From positions 1 through 11,121 of the forward strand of contig CAYXAY010000024.1 of NCBI GenBank assembly GCA_964463155.1: a stretch of DNA of 11,121 bases. The letters run 5' to 3'. Under the pieces are notes generated by a model. It made no database searches. It saw only the letters and a list, made by a program, of their open reading frames with translations, and was not told where the DNA came from. Below, one piece after another: positions 1 to 11,121 of this stretch. The translations under genes and the position numbers were made by a program. The stretch comes from an uncultured archaeon (GTDB taxonomy: Archaea; Iainarchaeota; Iainarchaeia; Iainarchaeales; CSSED10-239). Numbering within the stretch: the stretch's first letter is position 1; each line of letters starts with the position of its first letter.

Positions 1-3000
1 TTTAGTATTCTTTTATCAACAGTTACTTTTTGGCCAGGACGTATTGTATATGTGCCATCTACATTTTGACTGCTACTTGTATTTAATGTACCGTTTGCAG
101 AAACCTTTATCACACCTGATACCGTCCCGTTAATAGTTAATGTAACAACCTCGTCAAAAATTATTACTTTACCATTTGTAATGGTTATATCTGCAGTTTT
201 ATCACCACTATTTAATATTATTGTTCCACTTAATTTTTTTGTCTCTAAATCCATATCTAGATCACCGCTAATAACATTTACTGCTAAATTATTAACTGTA
301 AAAGTTCCGTTAGTAATTATTAATTTCGCAGTGGTTGCTGTAGGTGTAGGTGCGGGGGTTTGTGTAGTAGTTTGCGTGGGATTTCCAGATGATCGTTTTG
401 TATTTGTTGTGCTCGTCATTGTATTTTGAGGATTGTACCATAGCAAAAAGCGTCCTGCGTTAAAATCAAAGCACATTGTTTCGGTGGTTATTCCTGTTAT
501 CATATTTTGAACAGTGCTGGTTTCTTCTGGCTTGTATTTGCTTATACCAACTAGGCTATATGGTATTCCATAAATATACTGGTAACTTCCTACTGCAGCT
601 AATTGTTGTGGATCAACATTGAAACTGAAATCAGATGACGAGGATACCTTTAATTGATAATTTATTCCTCTAGCCGTTTGTTTTAGATTATTGAATACAA
701 ACAATGTGTCCTTTCGTTGTGTGCTGTCTACTGATTTGTATTTTCCCAGCAGAACATATTCTATTAAATAATCTGAATTTGCAAGAACTTGTATTGGTCT
801 TATGTCTTTAAAGGTTATGTTCTTGTGGTTAGATGGGACAGATAGTATGTATCCATCTTGAACCTCATTATACTGGTCGTAATTGCTTAGTACAGTAGTA
901 GTTTTTTTCTGTATACCCAAACTGTCTGTTATATCGCTGAAAGGTACTCCGTCATATCGGTAATAATAAGCGTTTGTTGGGTTTGTAAAGAATATATTTT
1001 TCTGGAAATCTGAATTGTTGTTATAGTAATCCAAATGCTTATTTAAGTCATCTGACACTCTCTGAACAGTATATTCCATTTTTTTGTCGCGGGCCGAGTT
1101 TTGGGAGGAAGGTGGAAGTATAATATTTACACGATATGTCCCTGGAGCGGAAATTGCTTTTATTGGAGAGGAATTATTTAAATCTATTCTCCAACCATCG
1201 TTCATGAACCCCTCTGCTGTAAAGATTTTAGGTGTTAGTCCGGTAGCATTTAAATCTCCATAGGTCTTTGCATTAATAATGAATGGAGAGATTGTGTCTC
1301 CGTAATAGATTTGCATAGTGTTTAGGAATTGGGTTAAAAATTCTAATATTGTTGCTTGATTACCTTCTGATGTTGTTGAATCGTTTATCATTTGTTCTAA
1401 CCCGCGACTTCTTAAGAAAGAATCAACAGTGAATTGATAATTATTTTTATCTTTATTAAAGTTGTTATCGCTTGTATGCGTGATTAATGTTGTGATGTTG
1501 TTGTCGTTAAGATTTTCTTTTGGCAAGATTTTGACTTCAATTATTGTAAATTTTTTTAATTCTGAAGGAACTGTTCCTAATATTTTCTCTAATGATGATA
1601 ATTGTTCTACAGAATTTTTATCTGTAAATTCTTCGTTAGAAACAGCGGTTTCAATTATTGCTTTGTATACAGGGTTTGTTGTCATTGGACTTTTTGCAAC
1701 CTTGTTTCCGTCAGCTAAGAAATTTATTCCATCAAGTTTTATTATTGTATTTTGTTTAAAAAATACTGCTTTCTTTGACATTGCTATTCTTAATTGGTCT
1801 TGGTCACAATATACTACACCATAATCGCAGGTATTGTGATTGATTTCACTGGCATTATATATAAATAGTAATCTGTTAAATCCGTATTTATTATAATTTG
1901 CTTTCCCTGTAACACCTTTTTTTGCTTGGCCTTTTGGATCATAACATTCACCAGAATCAATTTGTGGACTTGTTGAAAGATAGGCAGAGAACGCTTGTTC
2001 TGTCTCTTCTTTTTTGTCTAGTCGGTCATCTTTTATTTTTGGTTGAGTTTGGTCAGGGTCTGGTTTCGGTGGAATTTGGTCAGGGCCTGGTTTCGGTGGA
2101 ATTTGTCCAGACAATGTTGGACTTGTGTCTTTCATCTCACCTAAATTACCTAACCATTGTAGGTTGTCCGTAAATGTTATTTCTTCTTCTATTTCACTAT
2201 AGTTTAATCTTGGTGATGAATACCCAACAGCAAGCATTGCTTTCAAGTTGATTGTATTTCCTAAATCAAAATAACCCTTTCTTATATTTGTTGCAATCTT
2301 TGCTACACTTTCGTTAGTGTCTATCTGGAATGCTTTTTCATTAATCTCTGGGTTTCTTCTTACAGAAATTGTCATTATCTCTGTTGTCTTTCCATCAATT
2401 ACCCTGTATGTTTTCTTTGGCTTTAATTCTTTGTTTACATCTCCTATTGAGAAATATTGTATTCCGCCAACCTCTGACATCTCTGGGTTTAGTACTTTTA
2501 AGTCTATTAAAGCGTAACCTGCATCATAACAGGTGTTAATTACCATTAATTTCTGTGGAGTTGTGTCTATTCCAGAGAAATCAAATGTTGTTGGTGATAC
2601 TTTTATACAACTGCTTGGAAGGATGTCAAGTGGTCTGTTTACTGTAACTGGTATGTCTTTAACATAAGTGTATTCTTCTATTGTGTCGTCGTTTGGTTTT
2701 GCGTTTACTGCGATCTTATATTGTCCAAGAATTTGTGCACCTTGAACTTCTAGCATTTGTGTTTGTCCTCTCTTTAATGTCATCTCCGCATTATTAACAA
2801 CAGTAACTCCTGCAACAGAAGTAAACTCCAATGCAAGTTCTTCATGACAATTATTTCTTACTTGTATCTGTGCTGTGTGACAACCGAATTGTCCTTGACT
2901 TCCAAAGCCCACTCCATGATAACCTGGTGGCGGGTTTTCTGTAAAGTTATTAAATGGATAACTTTGTTGATAATTTCCAAAGGTGTTTGGATAAGCAAAC

Positions 3001-4580
3001 AATCCGCTTTGGTAGTATGCTTGTGGAGCCCTTCCACCATATTGATAAGGATTTTGCCCAAATATTAATGGGTTAAATGCCATGGTGTTTGAACCATACA
3101 TTCCATAACCGTATGCTGCACAGTATGGTACAACAATTGGTGTTGTTGGTGTTTCTATACAGCTTACATAATTATTAAATATTAGTCTTGGCTTATGCTG
3201 TGACCTTATCTCATCAATGCCGTTTGTGTTTGGTCTGTTACTTGTAAATGTTAATATTGGTGTTGATACTCCCCCCTTTACTGTGTTACTTGTTTTGAAA
3301 ACAAGCCTTATGTCTGCAGACTTTCCTGCAACAATCTTGTTTGTGACATCAACCTTTTCATCAAGTGTTAGTTTCTTTTCTTGTCCTGAAACAACAACAT
3401 AGAAATTTCCAAGTTTCTTTGTGTTCTTGTAGTCTGCTTCAACATATATTCTCCCAAGATCTACAGGGATATTGTCAACAGCACATGTGTTTTTTAGTTT
3501 TACTATATATTCAACATCATTTGTTGATTCTAATCTTATAGTGGTTTCTTCTGGATCAACAACTAGACAATCTGTGCTGTCAATAGCGTTACCAAATGTT
3601 ATTCTTATTGTTAATGGAATCTCAATTACCCAAGTCTTTGCAAGAGTTGCCTCATTTACTGTCACAAGAAGATTTGTCTTTAGCATCTTTTGTGTCATCA
3701 AATCTATGCCATTTTCTGTTAGCTTTGTTGTTAACTCTATTCCTATTTGAGAATTTGGGTCTATTATTATTCCAGAAGAATTACTTGTCAATCTTACATA
3801 TTCAGAGCTTGTGGCTAGTTTTATGCCTGTTATTGTTAATGGTAGCATTGTGTTGTTCATCAAGACCATGTTTGTTTTGTCAGAATAACCTTTTGAAATA
3901 TCCAATTGGATTTCTAGTTTTTCCGGAATTGCTGAAATTAGAGTCTCTGAAACAACAATCTTTGTTGTGTGTGTTCCAAATCCTTGCTTTCTCACAGTTA
4001 TTTCAACCGCACTGCTTGCGTTTGTTGCTGGAAGTATAAATGCAAATATTCCTTCTCTGTTTGTTTTGCCATCAACCACTGCTTTTCCATTTATTCTTAC
4101 AAACACCCCTGCATCAACTATTGAAAGGTTACTATCATCTGTAACTCCAACAGCAACCGTGTTAGGAACAAATGGAACTATTGTTTTTGGTACAATGTCA
4201 ACAACAAGTTTTTTGGATGGTTTTAAATTAAATAATATTTTCTTTGAAAAGATTACTTCTCCGTCTGACATTAATGTCATTGTCAGTTCATCACTAACAT
4301 CATTAGTCACACTTAAGTCTATGTCTCCTATTATTGTTCCGTTTGCTGAAACGCTTCCCAGATTTATGTTTGAAAAATCATTGTCTGTGATTGGGAAGTC
4401 TCCGCCAGGAGTTATTGTGTAATTATTAAGTTTTATTGTTCTTCCTGCAGTTGAGATAATCATTACTGCATCGTTTGCTGGTCTTTGTAGGTTTAATCTG
4501 AAATTAAATTTATAGTCTGTTCCGTCTTTTGCTGTGAACTTGTCAATCACTCTCTTTTCCTGACCGGTTGCCTTGTCCTT
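1..4580 (-). CDS. Giant surface protein, segment B: same reading frame continuing directly after the TGA (1,526 further codons, 3'-partial, runs off the window start)
   Basis: The same frame stays open from 4580 down to position 3, with no stop found on row-by-row hand translation. It reads RTRQPVREKRVIDKFTAKDGTDYKFNFRLNLQ.. and ends ..NVDGTYTIRPGQKVTVDKRIL at the window edge. It contains further beta-sandwich modules, paired cysteines, the low-complexity loop, the Pro-rich repeat and the Thr/Pro linker. It has no export signal of its own after the TGA; the first candidate starts are GTG 4548-4550 and ATG 4461-4463. It therefore makes sense only as a continuation of segment A. Confidence 0.8.
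327..422 (-). other. Thr/Pro-rich linker in the giant protein
   Basis: The translation is TMTSTTNTKRSSGNPTQTTTQTPAPTPTATTA. It separates a globular region (..CFDFNAGRFLLWYNPQN) from the terminal ..ITNG.. repeat region. This composition is typical of extended, often glycosylated, extracellular linkers. Confidence 0.7.
2044..2110 (-). repeat. 27-nt tandem repeat (about 2.5 copies) encoding a proline-rich 9-aa repeat hinge
   Basis: On the + strand, tgagtttggtcagggtctggtttcggt (2044-2070) and ggaatttggtcagggcctggtttcggt (2071-2097) share 24 of 27 positions. A partial third copy, ggaatttgtccag, follows at 2098-2110. On the minus strand this encodes Q-IPPKPGPD-Q-IPPKPDPD-Q-TQPKIKDD. The antisense track ORF 1922..2173 shows the same period (VEFGQGLVS repeated twice, then a partial third copy VEFVQ). 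Confidence 0.9.
2883..3119 (-). other. 79-residue Tyr/Gly/Gln/Asn/Phe/Pro low-complexity loop bracketed by two Cys codons (3120-3122 and 2880-2882)
   Basis: Hand translation gives C-AAYGYGMYGSNTMAFNPLIFGQNPYQYGGRAPQAYYQSGLFAYPNTFGNYQQSYPFNNFTENPPPGYHGVGFGSQGQFG-C. My counts are G 14, Y 11, F 8, Q 8, N 8 and P 8, together 57 of 79. The only ionisable residues are one R, one E and one H. Confidence 0.85.
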
Positions 4581-4583
4581 CAA
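4581..4583 (-). other. Single in-frame TGA (codon 797) inside the giant reading frame
   Basis: The + strand TCA at 4581-4583 is in frame. The mRNA context is GGT TCA TAT TGA AGG ACA AGG (..G S Y * R T R..). It is the only stop triplet among 2,323 in-frame codons in the window. Confidence 0.9.
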
Positions 4584-6971
4584 TATGAACCTATAACAAA
4601 TTCCGCTATCACAAGCAGTTGACTCGCCAACATAAATTGCAAGCATGTTTGCATAAGCATATAGCGATTGCTTTGTTGTTGAACCCATTCCTGTGCCTAA
4701 GACATTGTCTTGTGGGTTTCTTAGAACTGTTGTTCCGTGATAATACTCTGCTCTGTAAAAGATTGCCTGGTTTGCCATTGCTGTGTCTTTTACAACAATG
4801 TCTACATCAACGATATATGAACCTTCTATTGGGTTGTCAAGAATGACATTAAACCATTTTGCGTCTTTTTTTACAACTGACGCTAAGTCCTTTGACTCTC
4901 CTTGGCAAGGCGTGTAGTTGATTGAACCAACAACTTTGTTTCTTGCATAACTTATTTGTTTAATGTAAATTGAGTCTTCTGAAACTGTGTGCGTTTTGTT
5001 GTCACAACTGTCTCCTTCTCCTGTTCTTATATGAGCCACTACTTTTGAATATCTCTTGTCAACATTTAAAACAAATCTTGCTGTTGCTGATTGGCCGGCG
5101 ACAACGCTTGTAAGTATGTCTCCATTACTTGCAAAGTAACCGATGAATCTAATGTTTGCTGAGCGTGATGTTCCTGTTGGAATTATTATTCTGTCTTTAA
5201 GCATACTGCCTGCTTGAACAGAATATTGCTTTGTAATTACTTTTGTCCCTTCTTTTTCTATTAAGAAATATATTTTTTTATCAGCCCTTACTGGAATTAT
5301 AACAAGACCAGTTTCGTTTGTTGTTGTTTGCTTTTCAACCATTTCTATGTTGGTTGCTGAATCATATACTTTTATTGTTGCTTGAGAATATGGTACTCTA
5401 TCAGAATCAAGTATTGTTAGGTTATATGTTCCTTGGCCTATTGTTATTATTATTGGAACATCTGTTGCTTCTCTTTCCTTAACTACGAAATTATTTGTTC
5501 TACCAGAGAACTGACCAGTTATTGCTTCTGCAAAGTAGGTTGTACTTGGATCAAGGTTAGGGATTATTACTCTTCCACTAACATCTGTTGTTACAATCTT
5601 AACAACGCTGTTGTCTATAGCATCCCAAATCTTTACAGTGGCATACTCTATTGGTATCATCTCTCTGTCTGTTACGCTAATGTTTGCAAGACTGGTTGAT
5701 GTTGCATCTATGCTTATTAATTGTATATCTATTATGCTTGTTGAAATGCTTACTTGTCTGTTTGATAACAAGTATCCTGCTTTGTCTAATGATAATGAAT
5801 ATGAAACATTTTCTCGGACTCCAAACTTTACAGAACCTGTTGAGTCTGTTGTTTTTGTGTCAATTATTGCTCCGCCTTTTGAAAGCTTTGCGCTTACTCC
5901 TTCAAGGTGTCTTCCTGTTATCTTGTCTTTGACTTTTATTTCAATATAACCTATTATGTCTTTTTTTATTTTTAACTCTGTGCTGTTTAATCCTGTTTTT
6001 ATTAATACTGGTGTTACAAGGTTGTTTGCATAATCTAAATCAGTTATTCCAGAATAAACTGTTCGGGGATCAGAAACCAATATCTTGTATTGCTTTGATA
6101 CAATGACTAATTCTGAAATGAATATTCCGTTTGAGTTTGTTTGCCCGCTATCAACAATCTTTCCTGTGCTGTCATAGATTGTCACAGACAGGTTTGGGAT
6201 TGTTAGTAATGTGTCTTTGTCTTTTACTATTACTGACAATGTTGCAAAGTTGTTGCTTGCACTAAATATTATTTGTCCGATTGTGTCTGCTTGTGGGATG
6301 TTAACCTCAAAATCTGATCTTCCTTCAATGTTTGCTTGTAGACTTCCACAGTTTACTGGAATGTCGTTTAATGTGTATTCTCCGCCTGTTACTTTTACTG
6401 TCTTTCTGTAATCTGCAGTCATACAATAGAAATCAACTGTTAGTTCTGAGGTTACTGATTCTCCTGATCTTGTTTTAAATTGTATTGTTTTTGTTATTTT
6501 GTTTATTCCTTTCGCTAAATATATTAAGTAGTTTTTCTTAGAGCTTGGGTTAAGATTATATTGTTGTTTGTTTTGTGAAAATATATAGCTTTCATCAACT
6601 AACTTAAAAGTGTATAGTTGTGATTTGTCTAAATCTAAATACACATAACCCTCTTCATCTGTCATTAATGTTCTTGGTGTGTCGTTTAGTGTTACCCTAA
6701 GAACTATGTCTGATAATGGGTTGTTTGTTTCATCCATAAATCTTAGTTCTGTTCCTGATGGCTTTCCTGTAACTCCAAAGCCTGGAAGCATTAAGAAAAT
6801 TATTAATCCTATTATTGCAAACATTAATAGAATAAAAATTGGGAATGTAGGTATTCCGTTTTTCTCAAAAGGGTCAACTATCTTGTAGAAGTTAATTCCT
6901 TTTTCTTCAAGATTATCAAGCATTTCAAAATACTTGTCTTCTAGATTGTAGTAGAACTCTTTTAAACCCAT
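4581..6971 (-). CDS. Giant surface protein, segment A: complete standard-code ORF (796 aa, ATG 6971 to TGA 4581-4583); N-terminal signal anchor plus tandem beta-sandwich repeats. Not in the supplied ORF track
   Basis: I hand-translated the minus frame whose codons start at + coordinates divisible by 3. ATG lies at 6969-6971 and an in-frame TAA lies upstream at 7005-7007. No in-frame TTA, CTA or TCA triplet occurs on the + strand until TCA at 4581-4583. The product begins MGLKEFYYNLEDKYFEMLDNLEEKGINFYKIVDPFEKNG-IPTFPIFILLMFAIIGLIIFLMLPGF-GVTGKPSGTELRFMDETNNPLSDIVLRVTLNDTPRTLMTDEEGYVYLDL.. and ends ..STTKQSLYAYANMLAIYVGESLLVIAEFVIGSY*. Only short antisense ORFs cover this span in the track. Confidence 0.85.
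5170..6750 (-). other. Array of at least five tandem carboxypeptidase-regulatory-like (prealbumin/PEGA-like) beta-sandwich modules
   Basis: A recurring pattern runs [IV]x[IV]xD..(P)[IL]..[AV].[IV].[IL]...(4-10)..T[DNT]..G.[IVF].[IF]..[IL]......Y.[IL].[IVL]. Examples: LRVTLNDTPRTLMTDEEGYVYLDLDKSQLYTFKL; LSVTIYDSTGKIVDSGQTNSNGIFISELVIVSKQYKILV; IEIKVKDKITGRHLEGVSAKLSKGGAIIDTKTTDSTGSVKFGVRENVSYSLSLDKAGY; ATVKIWDAIDNSVVKIVTTDVSGRVIIPNLDPSTTYFAEA; ATIKVYDSATNIEMVEKQTTTNETGLVIIPVRADKKIYFLIEKEG. A sixth copy lies near 3975-4125 (VFVRINGKAVVDGKTNREGIFAFILPATNASSAVEITVRKQGF). The modules are divergent at nucleotide level. Confidence 0.6.
6777..6854 (-). other. Single transmembrane signal-anchor helix of the giant protein (residues 40-65)
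   Basis: The helix is IPTFPIFILLMFAIIGLIIFLMLPGF. It follows a 39-residue acidic, aromatic N-terminus (MGLKEFYYNLEDKYFEMLDNLEEKGINFYKIVDPFEKNG) and precedes polar beta-rich sequence. No signal-peptidase-like A-x-A site is evident. Confidence 0.7.
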
Positions 6972-7001
6972 TTTTGAAAACCTTTTTTTATTCTTTCTTT
7001 T

Positions 7002-7017
7002 TATTTAAATATTTAAA
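7002..7017 (-). promoter_or_regulatory. Candidate TATA-like promoter element for the giant gene (tandem TTTAAATA on the minus strand)
   Basis: The + strand carries tatttaaa twice in tandem (7002-7009 and 7010-7017), which reads TTTAAATA TTTAAATA on the minus strand, 31-46 nt upstream of ATG 6971. That would fit an archaeal TATA box with a very short leader. The spacer is so AT-rich that chance matches are likely. Only a weak AGGT lies at about -13..-10, and there is no GGAGG. Confidence 0.3.
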
Positions 7018-7132
7018 ATTTAAATATTATATATATTATTAATTTAAACATTTGTTTATAAATATTGCTTTTTTTATAAATATATAGTTAGTTAAAAAGG
7101 TTTATAAAATAATACTAATTAACCGGCATAAG

Positions 7133-8851
7133 TTAGTTACTCTCCGGGCTACAACCTGGACTATCGTCTGGAGAAACTTGACTATAGCATATCCATTCTG
7201 GGGAATCAGGGTTTGCTGATGTCAAATTTTCAGCTGTTAAGTAACCTGTCGTTGTATTTACGGTCAATTGACTCCAATTGTTGTTTGGAGGGAAATAGAA
7301 AGGGGTGTATGTGTCATATATAAAGACGTGTATTCTAGTTTTTGTGTTTCCGTGATAAGTGTCTTTTATTTTGTATCTTGGGTCTGTTTCTTTAAACTCT
7401 AATTTTATTTCTGTGGAATGTAATTCTACGCAGCCAAGTGTGGCTGATTCTTGTGTATTATCGATTGTCACTTGTAGGTTGTAGTTTTCGTTGTAAAAGT
7501 CGTGGTTTTTAAACCAGATAAGCTCTGAAATATTTAGGGTGTCGTTCCAGAAAAGACCTAGGCCTCCAGCCACTGTTGGCATATTTTCTATTCTTGAAAA
7601 AATTTTTTGTTGATAAGTCGGAAGTGTATCCGTCATTGCTGTAACAAATCTTTTTGTTCTTTTCCGCTCAGTGATTGCTTTTATTTCTTTTATTTTTAGT
7701 TGTTGACTGCCATAGATTTTATTAGATTCTAAATCTAAACCGTTTCCGTAGGTTATTCTTTCGTTCTGTCTTTCATTCAAGGTGTAATTGAAATCAGAAA
7801 CATAAAGTGTCGTGAATTGTTCATTTAATGTTGGGGCATAAACATTATATGTTTGAGCTGGTGGTGTTTGAATGTTAGATAGAGTATCTGATTCTATTTG
7901 TTGGTCCGGGATTTCATGACATTGCTCGTCTAGAACTCCTGATACATTTGGAGTCTTAAAGAAGCTTGTTCTTGGAGCGCAGGTTCCTGGGTCGCAAAAG
8001 CCAAGCCTTGCTTGCTCAAAGATGTTGTGTTTTATAGGATTGAATAGTCCTTTGTCTTGTGGATGTTGGCCTGGAGAAGATGAACGTTCAGCGTTATTAT
8101 CACGAACGATGTTTCTTGCAACACGCAGGGCTTGAAAGCCACGCCATGGCATGTATATCTTGTAGATTTGCCTGCTTAGAACAGGTCTTTGAATCACTTG
8201 TTTTGTCTTATATTTAACAACCGTAACAACTGGCAACAACTCATAGTTTGCATCATCTAATTTTGTGGTATCAAGAGTCAAATAGAAAGAACCTATGCAG
8301 TTGTCTACAGTATTACAATCAACAACATCAACTTTTTCTCCGCCGTCCTTAAATATTCTTTCAACAAGAATGTCAAATTTGTTTTCATCATCGACGTCGA
8401 TCGGCCGGCCATAATTATCAATTCTGTAACCGGTATGCTCTTCTATTTTTATGTTATAACCTGGGGGGTACTGAGAATATTTTAAATTGAATAATAGGGC
8501 TTGTGCAAAATATGCAGCAAATTTTCTTTCAAAGAACTTTTCCTTTACAAAAGAATCCACAAACGCGCTCCAATTTTTGTCTATGTCTTGCCTGTTCAAA
8601 CGAAGTTCGTTGTTTGGTTTTGACTTATGTTCTTCCCAGGATGATCTTAAGTTTATTATGAAAGTGTTAAATGCATCTGCTCTTGCAATATCTGCAACAG
8701 TCATCAAATCAGACATTGAAGACTGGTCTTGAATCAATGACAAATAAGTTTCCTCTGTGTTAATCATGTTAAAGATTAGGGCCAGAGATATAGATACTAA
8801 TAACAAAGATATTAATGCTGTAAATAATGTAAAACCTTTTTGTGTTTTCAT
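7133..8851 (-). CDS. Large (572 aa) type IV pilin-like / minor-pseudopilin-like extracellular protein with a non-canonical prepilin signal
   Basis: The track ORF runs from ATG 8849-8851 to a TAA stop at 7133-7135. An in-frame TAG lies 7 codons upstream of the ATG, so this is the first possible start. The N-terminus is MKTQKG-FTLFTALISLLLVSISLALIFNMI. The remainder is polar with 8 cysteines, six of them in close pairs (VDCNTVDNC, FCDPGTC, WIC..SPGC), which fits an exported, disulfide-bonded protein. All 7 Trp codons are TGG. Confidence 0.85.
   Translation of the reverse strand: MKTQKGFTLFTALISLLLVSISLALIFNMINTEETYLSLIQDQSSMSDLMTVADIARADAFNTFIINLRSSWEEHKSKPNNELRLNRQDIDKNWSAFVDSFVKEKFFERKFAAYFAQALLFNLKYSQYPPGYNIKIEEHTGYRIDNYGRPIDVDDENKFDILVERIFKDGGEKVDVVDCNTVDNCIGSFYLTLDTTKLDDANYELLPVVTVVKYKTKQVIQRPVLSRQIYKIYMPWRGFQALRVARNIVRDNNAERSSSPGQHPQDKGLFNPIKHNIFEQARLGFCDPGTCAPRTSFFKTPNVSGVLDEQCHEIPDQQIESDTLSNIQTPPAQTYNVYAPTLNEQFTTLYVSDFNYTLNERQNERITYGNGLDLESNKIYGSQQLKIKEIKAITERKRTKRFVTAMTDTLPTYQQKIFSRIENMPTVAGGLGLFWNDTLNISELIWFKNHDFYNENYNLQVTIDNTQESATLGCVELHSTEIKLEFKETDPRYKIKDTYHGNTKTRIHVFIYDTYTPFYFPPNNNWSQLTVNTTTGYLTAENLTSANPDSPEWICYSQVSPDDSPGCSPESN
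8762..8851 (-). other. Class III (prepilin-type) signal peptide plus hydrophobic N-terminal helix; predicted cleavage after Gly6
   Basis: A short basic leader (MKTQK) is followed by Gly6 (codon 8834-8836), then F-T-L-F-T and about 22 hydrophobic residues. This matches the bacterial prepilin peptidase / N-methylation motif ([KR]-G-F-T-L-x-E) except that position +5 is Thr rather than Glu. Confidence 0.55.
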
Positions 8852-8883
8852 AAATATATCTAAATAAAAATACTAAGAAAAAG

Positions 8884-8891
8884 ATTTAAAA
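8884..8891 (-). promoter_or_regulatory. Candidate TATA-like element upstream of the 572-aa gene
   Basis: The minus strand reads TTTTAAAT at -40..-33 relative to ATG 8851, inside the 51-nt spacer 8852-8902. No Shine-Dalgarno-like purine run is present. Co-transcription with the upstream gene is equally possible. Confidence 0.2.
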
Positions 8892-8902
8892 GGAAATGTT
8901 AT

Positions 8903-11121
8903 TTATGCAACCCTTGGACCATGCTGTTCATAAAGTGCATAACCGTGTTTTGGAATTACAACTTGGCAAATTCTGTTTATGGAGATCTCGTGCGTAAATC
9001 TAGTATCTAATGGTTCTAAAAAAACATCGCTAGTAAATTGATGAATTATCATGTCTTGTCCATAGTTTTTCCCAACATACAATACTGCATGTGATGGCGT
9101 TACACAATCCGTTCCTTTGGTTATTCCTATAGTGATTATTGAACCAGGAATCAAATAGTTATCAAAATCATAAATTGAATCTGTTTGTGCATCCCAAACA
9201 ACTGTGTTGTTTTTACCTATCTCCCAGGCATCTCCATTAACATATTCAGTATGTACATAATGTTTTTCAGCCACCCTTTGTGCAAACGCTGAACAATAAT
9301 CTGGGTATAGTGAACCAATGTCTAAACATTGTGTTTGGGTGTTTTTTGGAAATCTACATCTGGTGTAGGCTTGTAATTTACTTTGCATTTCAGAAAACAT
9401 TTCTGTCTGAAGTGCATATAGTGAGTTTGTTTCGTATTCAGTTTTTTGTTTTATTTTTTCGTTGTTTGTTTGAGGTGTTGAAGATTGTAGAAGTTCTGTT
9501 TGGTGTTCAGCGGTTAGTATTTCTTTTATTTCCTTGTCTTCCTTGTAGTATATTTTGTTGTCTTCAGAGATTGATGGAATTTCTTTAATCATTTGCACAT
9601 TAATTTTATTATTATTATTATTAACAATAACTACTCTATACCAATTGCCTTTATCAAACTCAGAGGTTGGCAGGTTTTCAATATATGCTTGGTTATTGAA
9701 TTGACCTTCTTCAGCTAGTACATCTAGTGCTGATTTTCCCATTTTGTTTGCAAAATAAACGATTGCCATATCTAATAAAAAATTAGTACCTATCCTTGCT
9801 CTCTTGCCCCACTTAGTTGCGCCAATCTTTGAGAAATTAGTGCTTTTTACTTGCAAGTCATCCAGCTTTTTAGAAAGATCACCAGGTAAGTCATATGCTC
9901 CACTACTGTTAACGGGGGTGGATTTTAAGTTCTTAAGACCATCTAAAGAATCATCAACTAATTGTTTCTGATTAGTCAATTCATCTATTTGGGTTTGAAG
10001 TTTAGTTGATCTTGTGCTTTGTCTTACAGTTAACTTTCCATCAACTGATTTCTTTTGCGCAGTTAAGTTATCTATCTGTTTTTTATATTCTTTAGATAAT
10101 TTATCATAGCTATCAATTCTTCTAGTTAGATCTGCGTTTGTTATTGTTCTTGAAACAACTTGCGTGGATGAACCAAGATTCTGTGTTTTAAATACATTAT
10201 CAATCTCATCAATTGATAAATTTACTGTTGAATTCGCTTTAGCTATGTCATCTATCTGTGTTTTTAAGGCATCGTCTATTTGATATCCCGTAGCAGTTCT
10301 AGACTGTGCAAATTTTGTTTTTACTGTTTCAATCTCTGTTTTTGCAATTGCAATTTTTGTTTTTGCGTTTAATAAACCGCCATCTGTGGGTTTTAGTTTT
10401 AATGCTTCATCAATTGTATCTGCATGTGAGTTTAATGTTTTTAATGTTTCATCTGAGTTATTTATGAATGCTTGGGCAGCGTCATCAGAAACCTGATGGA
10501 TATTTGTTACTCCCTGATTATATTGCGTAAATCTGTTCAAAAATGTTGTACGATATGTTGAAGAATAATTTTTGTATGTTCCTCCATTTAATATATCTGC
10601 TAATTTTTGTTTTTCTGAACCGGTTAATTTTTCAAATGCGTGGTAATTTAGAGTATATGTAGCTGTTTGTCCATAAGCTCCTGTTGGAGGAGGTTTTGTT
10701 GTAGTTATTTTTCCAAATATAGCTCCTAAATCTGTAGCATCTGCTGGAGTTGGAGTAAATATCGCTCCATTTTTAGGAATAGCGGGATAAAGTCCTCTTG
10801 CAATTGCCTGATGATTAGTTACTAATTGACGTTTAAATCCAGCTAATTCTGCACCAGTTAATCCACCTGTGGATGTTGTGGTTACGCCAGTTAGTCCACT
10901 TACATGTTTTGTTGCGGTGTATGTGATTTCGTCCGTGTATGTCGGATTTGTTACGACGTCTGGAATTGTAATTTGTGTTGCACTTTTTGTTCTGGTCAAT
11001 TCTGTTGCTGCTGGTCCAATTATGCCCAGATTTGTAGGATCAAATATTTTTCCAACTAACTCTACTATAGGCCCTAACGCCGCACCCATTACTTCCCCTA
11101 TCCATTTTAGGAAAGGAATCT
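8903..11121 (-). CDS. Coiled-coil protein with C-terminal NlpC/P60-like (papain-fold Cys-His-His) cell-wall hydrolase domain; probably 5'-partial
   Basis: The ORF track gives 8903..11089 (728 aa), with a TAA stop at 8903-8905. The frame stays open from the first ATG (11087-11089) to the window edge (..IPFLKWIGEV-MGAALGPIVELVGKIF..). Those 32 nt are not extremely AT-rich like the two real intergenic spacers, so the true start probably lies beyond 11121. Residues ~205-415 (about 9845..10477) are helical and heptad-like, rich in Q/K/D/T, with a recurring QID[DEN] motif (KTQIDDIAK, KKQIDNLTAQ, QTQIDELTNQ). The C-terminal catalytic motifs are listed in the next feature. Confidence 0.85.
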   Translation of the reverse strand, partial: IPFLKWIGEVMGAALGPIVELVGKIFDPTNLGIIGPAATELTRTKSATQITIPDVVTNPTYTDEITYTATKHVSGLTGVTTTSTGGLTGAELAGFKRQLVTNHQAIARGLYPAIPKNGAIFTPTPADATDLGAIFGKITTTKPPPTGAYGQTATYTLNYHAFEKLTGSEKQKLADILNGGTYKNYSSTYRTTFLNRFTQYNQGVTNIHQVSDDAAQAFINNSDETLKTLNSHADTIDEALKLKPTDGGLLNAKTKIAIAKTEIETVKTKFAQSRTATGYQIDDALKTQIDDIAKANSTVNLSIDEIDNVFKTQNLGSSTQVVSRTITNADLTRRIDSYDKLSKEYKKQIDNLTAQKKSVDGKLTVRQSTRSTKLQTQIDELTNQKQLVDDSLDGLKNLKSTPVNSSGAYDLPGDLSKKLDDLQVKSTNFSKIGATKWGKRARIGTNFLLDMAIVYFANKMGKSALDVLAEEGQFNNQAYIENLPTSEFDKGNWYRVVIVNNNNNKINVQMIKEIPSISEDNKIYYKEDKEIKEILTAEHQTELLQSSTPQTNNEKIKQKTEYETNSLYALQTEMFSEMQSKLQAYTRCRFPKNTQTQCLDIGSLYPDYCSAFAQRVAEKHYVHTEYVNGDAWEIGKNNTVVWDAQTDSIYDFDNYLIPGSIITIGITKGTDCVTPSHAVLYVGKNYGQDMIIHQFTSDVFLEPLDTRFTHEISINRICQVVIPKHGYALYEQHGPRVA
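8906..9367 (-). other. NlpC/P60-like papain-fold hydrolase domain (candidate triad Cys599, His667, His683)
   Basis: The translated motifs are LYPDYC(599)SAFAQRV (Cys codon 9293-9295), LIPGSIITIG, then PSH(667)AVLYVGKNYGQDMIIH(683)QF (His codons 9089-9091 and 9041-9043). Their order and spacing (Cys, 68 aa, His, 16 aa, His) and the hydrophobic strand before the first His match canonical, non-permuted NlpC/P60 or CHAP-type peptidoglycan amidases and endopeptidases. This is motif recognition only. Confidence 0.6.

Follow-up and report, generated by a model that had tools for sequence, protein, structure and literature searches.

Contig CAYXAY010000024.1 of the assembly GCA_964463155.1, from an uncultured archaeon of the Iainarchaeota (Diapherotrites, DPANN), is 11,121 nt long and was analysed over its full length, here called the window. 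All of its long open reading frames (ORFs) sit on the minus strand, the G+C content is approximately 34% throughout, and tRNA and Rfam scans of the window gave no match. The first-pass annotation, made from the letters of the window alone, had described three co-oriented genes separated by spacers of 51 nt and 161 nt, and the ORF list agrees with this; the genes are called g1, g2 and g3 in the direction of transcription. Comparison with related loci identifies the window as a fragment of an island of giant surface proteins of the Iainarchaeota, and the trio that had been taken for a three-gene module belongs, according to the ORF maps of these loci, to an array of at least six genes. The full array reads giant1, g2, giant2, giant3, a Sec-secreted protein of approximately 970 aa and giant4, with LemA upstream of it in two relatives. 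It covers approximately 30-42 kb, which is about 5% of a genome of approximately 0.84 Mb.

The window spans the whole contig, 11,121 nt being also the length of the longest contig on record for the exact g2 protein, and both g1 and g3 run off its ends. The frame of g1 stays open upstream of the ATG at 11089 to base 11119 (IPFLKWIGEV-MGAAL) with no in-frame stop, and its 738-aa translation aligns from residue 1 onwards to residues 2163-2953 of the 2953-aa giant1 of locus L002 (BLASTP, E 3e-128), so that g1 must be cut by the end of the contig. The gene that precedes the g2 orthologue in the closest relatives encodes 2,953 aa (L002) and 3,116 aa (L004), and giant1 orthologues range from 2855 to 3116 aa. 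Judged by these relatives, g1 is the C-terminal quarter of a giant protein of approximately 2,900-3,100 aa. The open frame and the alignment to L002 do not sustain the earlier view of a complete hydrolase gene of 728 aa, and what had been described as a hydrolase on a coiled-coil stalk becomes the distal end of an N-terminally anchored giant of approximately 3000 aa. The g3 gene shares 61% identity over its full length with the 2,317-aa giant2 orthologue of L002 and lacks only about 8 codons. Exact look-up of the window proteins to extend the contig found g2 only in a 2.5-kb Logan contig and g1 nowhere, and a word-indexed homology search with the whole of g1 or its last 306 aa returned no relatives.

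The order of the array was constant in the ORF maps of 56 loci, labelled by BLASTP with g1, g2 and g3: giant1 (2,500-3,100 aa), g2, giant2 (2,200-2,700 aa) and giant3 (1,600-1,870 aa). About 40 Iainarchaeota loci share this order, the complete Ca. Forterrea genome (CP045477.1) among them. A scan of one genome per species gave 33 loci, mostly labelled Iainarchaeum/Diapherotrites or unclassified archaeon in their record titles, of which the complete genome of Ca. Forterrea multitransposorum was again one. The island is also carried by two long contigs, Ga0116249_10000002 (813 kb) and Ga0074198_1000002 (977 kb), and close relatives occur in samples from anaerobic digesters or activated sludge (JGI 3300010357, 3300009688, 3300014204, 3300035208). 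The homologues of g2 (n = 79) were 345-674 aa long, mostly 545-607 aa; those with a source name were proteins of metagenome-assembled genomes (MAGs) called 'archaeon' or 'Ca. ainarchaeum' (DPANN/unclassified), and most of the 79 were unnamed. Counted over 39 distinct g2 orthologues, a giant was located directly upstream of g2 in 23 of the 27 loci with a readable upstream flank (median gap 58 nt), and a homologue of g3 directly downstream in 28 of the 31 loci with a readable downstream flank (median gap 179 nt). The conservation of the three genes in related genomes, which had been proposed as a check on their linkage, is thereby strongly confirmed. The short conserved gaps between g2 and the giants suggest co-expression. 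In the window, the octamer TATTTAAA is repeated 4.5 times at 7002-7037, in the spacer before giant2, in the manner of repeated archaeal TATA boxes, and is probably a separate promoter for giant2.

Departures from the common map were seen in single loci. A signal-peptide protein of 574 aa intrudes between giant1 and g2 in L023 (8235-9959), a 403-aa gene separates g2 from giant2 in L025 (11743-12954), and a 780-aa protein stands in for the giant upstream of g2 in L014 (183-2525). A giant is split into two ORFs in L007 (590-9945; 2541 + 433 aa), L044 (2-5409) and L052 (2348-8128); a frameshift could be the cause, or else a pseudogene or an error of assembly. The island contigs L022, L029, L031 and L034 were binned as Falkowbacteria, Thaumarchaeota or Chloroflexota and are probably mis-binned Iainarchaeota.

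The downstream part of the map was obtained by a metagenome scan seeded on giant3. In most of the loci extending that far, giant3 is followed by a protein of approximately 965-1,090 aa bearing a Sec-type signal peptide (15648-18581 in L039, 15579-18476 in L053, 15332-18355 in L045 and 14892-17783 in L046), for which there was no Pfam match, and then mostly by an anchored giant4. L039, which is the locus closest to the window, and L055 have a gene with a Sec-type signal peptide in place of the anchored giant4. L055 also carries genes of 279 aa and 1,325 aa where the other loci have the secreted protein. No transporter or dedicated secretion gene was found in the array.

All the giants open with a cytoplasmic module of approximately 45 aa, MGLK.FYY.LEDKYY...KGI.LYK..D..EK.GIPSF, directly before a single transmembrane segment (TM). 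The module was aligned from 17 N-termini of giant1, giant2 and giant3 from several clades (alignment A4), with carriers in the window and in L002, L004, L012, L014, L018, L023, L025, L029 and L037, and giant4 bears the variant MSFKE.W..L..I..R.PIKKITGPLDKK.PLTSFF. Pfam gave no match for the module, which might be a targeting or docking signal. By hydropathy, every giant (1,600-3,100 aa) has one strong TM within residues ~44-113, and in giant2 of the window this TM covers residues 44-62 and is followed by immunoglobulin (Ig)-like domains of the CarboxypepD_reg type. Behind the TM, 1,600-3,000 aa of each giant are for the most part made up of Ig-like beta-sandwiches; here Pfam recognised CarboxypepD_reg and, more weakly, bMG3, SdrD_B, SpaA, MG4 and Big_1, together with linkers rich in Thr/Pro or Pro/Lys. 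In giant2, CarboxypepD_reg matched in 4 stretches (E 2e-17) and bMG3 and SdrD_B matched weakly. Identity between giant2 and giant3 is 22-26% over 550-1,400 aa, and with their common N-terminal module and TM the giants of the array are, on these alignments, paralogues. From the domain types and the conserved cysteines we infer that the bulk of the giants is extracellular. The envelope features that had been read from the window at first are real: g3 has its TM and Ig-like domains, and g2 has a hydrophobic segment (residues 9-27).

Two further segments of the giants were observed. A low-complexity segment rich in Gln/Tyr/Gly/Asn/Pro (YGYGMYGSNTMAFNPLIFGQNPYQYGGRAPQAYYQSGLFAYPNTFGNYQQSYPFNNF) lies in giant2 at 2922-3119 of the window and at the same position in the L002 orthologue. 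At the start of the giant1 fragment (approximately 10990-11121), approximately 750 aa before the end of giant1, there is a moderately hydrophobic stretch rich in Gly/Ala/Cys (Kyte-Doolittle 1.5-1.8, below a clear TM); the same stretch was found at residues ~2100-2250 of giant1 in L009, L016, L018, L024 and L035, and could perhaps be a membrane-interacting loop.

The segment at residues 9-27 is the sole hydrophobic segment of g2, and the N-terminus in which it lies (K-K-G-F-T/N-L-F-T-A-L-I/V-S-L-L-L) is the most conserved stretch of the g2 family. Positions G6, F7, L9, F10, T11, A12, L13, S15 and L18 are conserved at 90% or above in 34 orthologues (alignment A1), whose overall identity to the protein of the window is no more than 25-55%; eight Cys are also invariant in A1. 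Against Pfam N_methyl the g2 N-terminus scored 12.9 bits (E 0.088; cut-off 21.2), NCBIfam ComGF matched weakly and at the N-terminus only (E 0.0023), and the orthologue P0002 carries the NCBI name 'prepilin-type N-terminal cleavage/methylation domain-containing protein'. An AlphaFold2 (AF2) model of g2 made from 34 sequences (predicted local distance difference test, pLDDT, 83.9; predicted template modelling score, pTM, 0.80) displays a helix at 9-76 and a mixed, beta-rich body. Foldseek found no hit with E <0.26 for this model among the PDB and the BFVD viral structures. A minor-pilin fold resembling that of GspK, CofB or ComZ was considered for g2 and received no support from Foldseek. By its N-terminus, g2 is a prepilin-like surface protein that is probably processed by a peptidase, and its globular part is disulfide-rich and of no recognised fold.

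The C-terminal part of giant1 in the clade of the window comprises a helical heptad-like region, a small conserved pre-terminal module and, last, an NlpC/P60-like domain. In the 738-aa translation, residues ~181-402 are poor in Pro/Gly, charged and heptad-like, with a crude score above the 99th percentile of shuffles, and a 21-nt tandem repeat is present within the region (10307-10366); this is suggestive, and only suggestive, of an extended helical region. Pfam, NCBIfam and PHROGs scans of g1 gave no hit. In an alignment of nine sequences of the terminal domain (A2), a Cys (YCSAF) and a His (PSHxVLYVGK) are invariant, and the third polar residue is H, or Q in two members, and has an invariant Gln after it. 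Two Cys upstream of the catalytic one are likewise invariant, and such a pair agrees with a domain placed outside the cell. A PDB profile search with A2 found nothing. An exhaustive phmmer search (1.84 billion representatives) gave 21 relatives of the domain, some of them other giants with the domain at the C-terminus and others stand-alone proteins of 116-211 aa. The stand-alone hits with NCBI records (n = 3) were from Diapherotrites, Nanoarchaeota and 'archaeon' MAGs, most hits being without a taxon label, and the stand-alone proteins may form a DPANN-associated family of small NlpC/P60-like proteins. Most of them (P0087-P0100) have an N-terminal hydrophobic segment.

Alignments A7 and A9 were made by enlarging A2 with the stand-alone DPANN homologues. 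In A9, H81 is invariant, C13 nearly so and the third position is H/Q/E, in the canonical Cys-His-polar order. By hmmsearch of the PDB, the enlarged profile gave three hits only, all of the NlpC/P60 superfamily: Tae2 (6win_A, E 0.0062) and two C40 peptidases (6biq_A, E 0.032, and another, E 0.2). In a single pairwise comparison, hhalign against three PDB NlpC/P60 domains gave a probability of 90.3% (E 1.5e-6), with the Cys, His and His in register with the catalytic C/H/H residues in Spr, 7cfl and 8v3w; the control with an unrelated alignment gave 0.5%. Pfam NLPC_P60 was also weakly matched by two independent members (E 0.1 and E 0.024). The Cys-His-His hydrolase proposed in the first-pass annotation is therefore accepted, with the support of the register and the PDB hits, as a divergent domain of the NlpC/P60 superfamily and a predicted hydrolase. 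The coordinates of the features are collected in Table 1.

Table 1. Features of the 11,121-nt window, listed in the direction of transcription.
Feature	Position	Strand	Basis or remark
giant1 3' end, C-terminal 738 codons, stop codon 8903-8905	8903..11121	-	open frame and BLASTP
g1 ORF from ATG	8903..11089	-	728 aa as listed; 3' end of giant1
Helical heptad-like region of giant1 ('coiled-coil stalk')	9914..10579	-	crude heptad score
Divergent NlpC/P60-superfamily (papain-like) Cys-His-His domain, predicted, ~170 aa, giant1 C-terminus	8906..9412	-	alignments A2, A9
Candidate catalytic codons	Cys 9293-9295, His 9089-9091, His 9041-9043	-	family alignments; Cys599, His667 and His683 of the 728-aa ORF
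giant1-g2 spacer, 51 nt, AT-rich	8852..8902	-	orthologous median 58 nt (23 loci, giant directly upstream)
g2, 572 aa, Cys-rich, with prepilin-like (class III signal-peptide-like) N-terminus	7133..8851	-	
g2 N-terminus, MKTQKG followed by FTLFTALISLLLVSISLALIF: basic leader, Gly, ~21-residue hydrophobic helix	8771..8851	-	
g2-giant2 spacer, 161 nt, very AT-rich	6972..7132	-	orthologous median gap 179 nt
giant2 (g3), 2323 codons, open at base 1	1..6971	-	61% identity to 2317-aa orthologue
N-terminal anchor module of giant2	6786..6971 (TM 6786-6842)	-	alignment A4, hydropathy scan
Ig-like beta-sandwich repeats of giant2	5454..6242	-	bMG3-like residues 244-284; best CarboxypepD_reg residues 432-506
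27-nt tandem repeat of giant2, Pro/Lys-rich linker QIPPKPGPD x2.6	2037..2105	-	

Taken together, we lean, if only slightly, towards reading the island as a cell-contact apparatus of anchored giants and g2, to which a tethered wall amidase is added in the clade of the window. The giants would be N-terminally anchored fibres projecting from the cell, and the far end of giant1 would hold an amidase or peptidase at tens of nanometres from the membrane, where it may cut peptide stems in the wall of another cell, be this wall of bacterial peptidoglycan or of pseudomurein. An archaeal prepilin peptidase would cleave g2 after Gly6, and g2 would then remain in the membrane, or form a short pilus-like structure, as the partner by which the fibres are organised or docked. 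The ensemble would serve attachment and wall breaching in an organism that needs cell components from a partner, and attachment to, and breaching of, another cell's wall, which had been suggested at first, is still the role that we infer as the best one. The conservation across the phylum, together with the occupancy of about 5% of a minimal genome, makes the island a strong candidate for the contact of the cell with its surroundings. Archaea have, to our knowledge, no peptidoglycan, and a peptidoglycan-type amidase at the end of an archaeal fibre predicts partners with peptide-cross-linked walls. The more specific proposal, that the clade attacks or feeds on cells with such walls (bacteria, pseudomurein methanogens) by way of a fibre of approximately 3000 aa with a Tae2-like tip and the novel-fold g2, is regarded as doubtful.

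Several observations weigh against a wall-cutting contact apparatus, among them the distribution of the enzyme. The C-termini of giant1 were compared in L016-L026 and in L022, L025 and L028-L038. The Forterrea-type giant1 ends after the conserved pre-terminal module, without the NlpC/P60-like domain, and in a third clade giant1 carries an unrelated, helical-looking domain of approximately 150 aa that contains Cys (EELIMAVL..QPE..GC...W) and has no Pfam or PDB match. A lysozyme/SLT-like identity of this third domain, suspected by eye from EELIMAVLIEQPE, was rejected (hhalign against SLT70 sequences, 0.15% probability). Since the enzyme end is clade-specific, wall cutting cannot be the conserved core function of the island; across the compared clades, this core is made up of the fibres and g2, and the amidase is a clade-specific addition. 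The NLPC_P60 matches, at 13-17 bits, are below the curated Pfam cut-off of 23, and in the single-sequence AF2 model of the enzyme domain (pLDDT 30.8) the fold is not readable. The lack of peptidoglycan in archaea counts here as well, and amide or ester bonds of other kinds are also within the range of NlpC/P60 domains. For g2, the N_methyl cut-off was reached by none of the 34 orthologues, E <=0.1 being obtained in two of them, and position +5 is an invariant Thr and not Glu; Glu5 is dispensable in archaeal pilins and in tip pseudopilins. A search of the flanking DNA for prepilin peptidase, ATPases and platform proteins, as had been recommended, found none there: neither the Walker motif of secretion ATPases nor the A24 peptidase motif was present in ORFs of >=150 aa in 835 kb of flanks, and no platform gene was detected in any flank examined.

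That the island is instead a housekeeping envelope scaffold, a substitute for an S-layer in which the NlpC/P60-like domain would process or cross-link the cell's own envelope proteins, appears unlikely. A single locus of fixed order throughout the phylum, at about 5% of the genome, is more like core structural genes than like host-specificity genes with a fast turnover; whole clades do without the enzyme domain, and stand-alone homologues of it occur in several DPANN lineages. The known archaeal S-layer proteins are, however, much smaller and usually anchored C-terminally. Among solved structures, those nearest to the enzyme domain are moreover peptidoglycan amidases, one of them an interbacterial toxin, and Forterrea is predicted to be host-dependent (PMC5905446).

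Quite improbable, in our judgement, is a type IV filament (TFF) attack module with its machinery elsewhere, in which g2 would be a minor pilin at the tip or cap and the giant adhesin and the hydrolase would be accessories. The conservation of the g2 N-terminus does go beyond that of an ordinary TM anchor, the model has a long N-terminal helix, and the exchange of Glu for Thr at +5 is a usual trait of those bacterial minor pseudopilins that are located at the tip, such as GspK. Archaeal class III signal peptides, however, are also found on non-pilin surface proteins, for instance the sugar-binding proteins of Sulfolobus. Large Ig-rich adhesin-like proteins are often held in archaeal TFF loci (10.64898/2026.04.22.720090), and ordinary archaeal pilin genes of the Q..LEYL type were found on two related contigs, L022 and L036; the Iainarchaeota probably do have TFF machinery. 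Against a role of g2 at a pilus tip stand the missing ATPase, platform and A24 motifs in the 835 kb of flanks, where no small pilin with a g2-type N-terminus was found in any flank examined, the failure of every scanned orthologue to reach the N_methyl threshold, and a g2 body without structural likeness to any solved pilin or minor pilin. The pilus-type N-terminus of the first-pass annotation is thus retained, being the most conserved part of the family, and its suggestion of a pilus tip or cap is not, with no filament genes in the flanks.

A polymorphic-toxin or contact-dependent-inhibition analogue, with giant1 as the delivery fibre, an exchangeable C-terminal toxin and a neighbouring immunity gene, is very improbable: the giant1 C-terminus does differ by clade (NlpC/P60-like, absent or unrelated) behind a conserved pre-terminal module, and of the solved structures the one most closely related is Tae2, a type VI secretion toxin, but this analogue is weakened because giant1 is followed by g2 whatever the C-terminal type and by no small variable immunity gene, and the C-terminal types track deep clades with no variation seen among close relatives, with no two-partner or other dedicated secretion gene present. 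A phage, plasmid or conjugation origin of the island, a possibility raised with the first reading, was rejected, as no such homology was found with PHROGs (g1) or among viral structures by Foldseek (g2) and there was no phage or plasmid signal.

The Iainarchaeota are tiny and uncultured, and the existence of hosts for them is still debated. If the wall-attack reading were true, it would be evidence of a cross-domain association between DPANN archaea and bacteria and the apparatus would be a contact weapon of a kind new for archaea, analogous to type VI or contact-dependent-inhibition delivery and independent of a secretion system. The enzyme domain of giant1 offers a defined target to express and assay, and the g2 family, with a confident model and no structural relatives, and the anchor module are tractable for structural and localisation work.

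The island itself (in Forterrea), giant surface proteins in ultrasmall symbionts and TFF loci with Ig-rich adhesins are already known. The fixed arrangement of giant1, g2 and giant2, the g2 family, the common anchor module, and the Tae2-like end of giant1 with its replacement in other clades were not found described in the literature. The initial statement that no such system had been described therefore holds only in part: in Ca. Forterrea multitransposorum, a 42-kb region with five membrane-anchored proteins of >1,800 aa was noted in one sentence and a cartoon (Probst & Banfield 2018, PMC5905446), and no fuller account of the island was found in the literature. This Forterrea locus (L018; CP045477.1, 231491-253155) is orthologous to the window: giant1 (2671 aa), a homologue of g2 (559 aa, 32% identity), giant2 (2323 aa, 34% identity over 1701 aa) and giant3 follow one another as in the other loci. 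The paper on Forterrea (PMC5905446) does not include the embedded prepilin-like gene, the common anchor module or the enzyme domain.

The giant1 domain resembles Tae2 (6win) and the C40 peptidase (6biq) in having a Cys-His-polar triad in the canonical, non-permuted order and spacing, and its motifs PG..I, (S/T)H..LYVGK and (H/Q/E)Q align with PGD, HVGIY and xH of NlpC/P60. It differs from the NlpC/P60 enzymes in that the similarity is marginal and in that it is either fused to an archaeal membrane-anchored protein of approximately 3000 aa or forms a stand-alone protein of approximately 200 aa. With pilins, large minor pilins (GspK, CofB, TcpB, ComZ) and class III proteins, g2 has in common a basic leader ending in Gly, approximately 21 hydrophobic residues, a long helix and a globular domain, and its size is comparable to that of the large minor pilins. 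It differs from pilins in the lack of Glu5, the N_methyl score below threshold, the unmatched fold of its body and the absence of assembly genes nearby.

A pilin-like protein beside very large Ig-fold surface proteins is also seen in the archaeal TFF loci of system 2, subsystem 4G (bioRxiv 10.64898/2026.04.22.720090), which hold large adhesin-like proteins rich in Ig domains. What defines those loci, however, is the set of ATPase, platform protein, pilins and signal peptidase, and the examined flanks of the island contained no member of this set. Giant surface proteins elsewhere include SPEARE of Nanohaloarchaeota, those of Vampirococcus (PMC8080830) and the giant genes of Omnitrophota (bioRxiv 10.1101/2023.11.21.568195). 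These are alike in their very large size, adhesion-type domains, occurrence in reduced genomes and proposed function in host recognition, some also with wall-degrading domains, and no sequence relationship to the giants of the island was found. The island giants differ from them in being paralogues of each other with a specific anchor module, in an array of constant order that includes a prepilin-like gene, and in being confined to one archaeal phylum.

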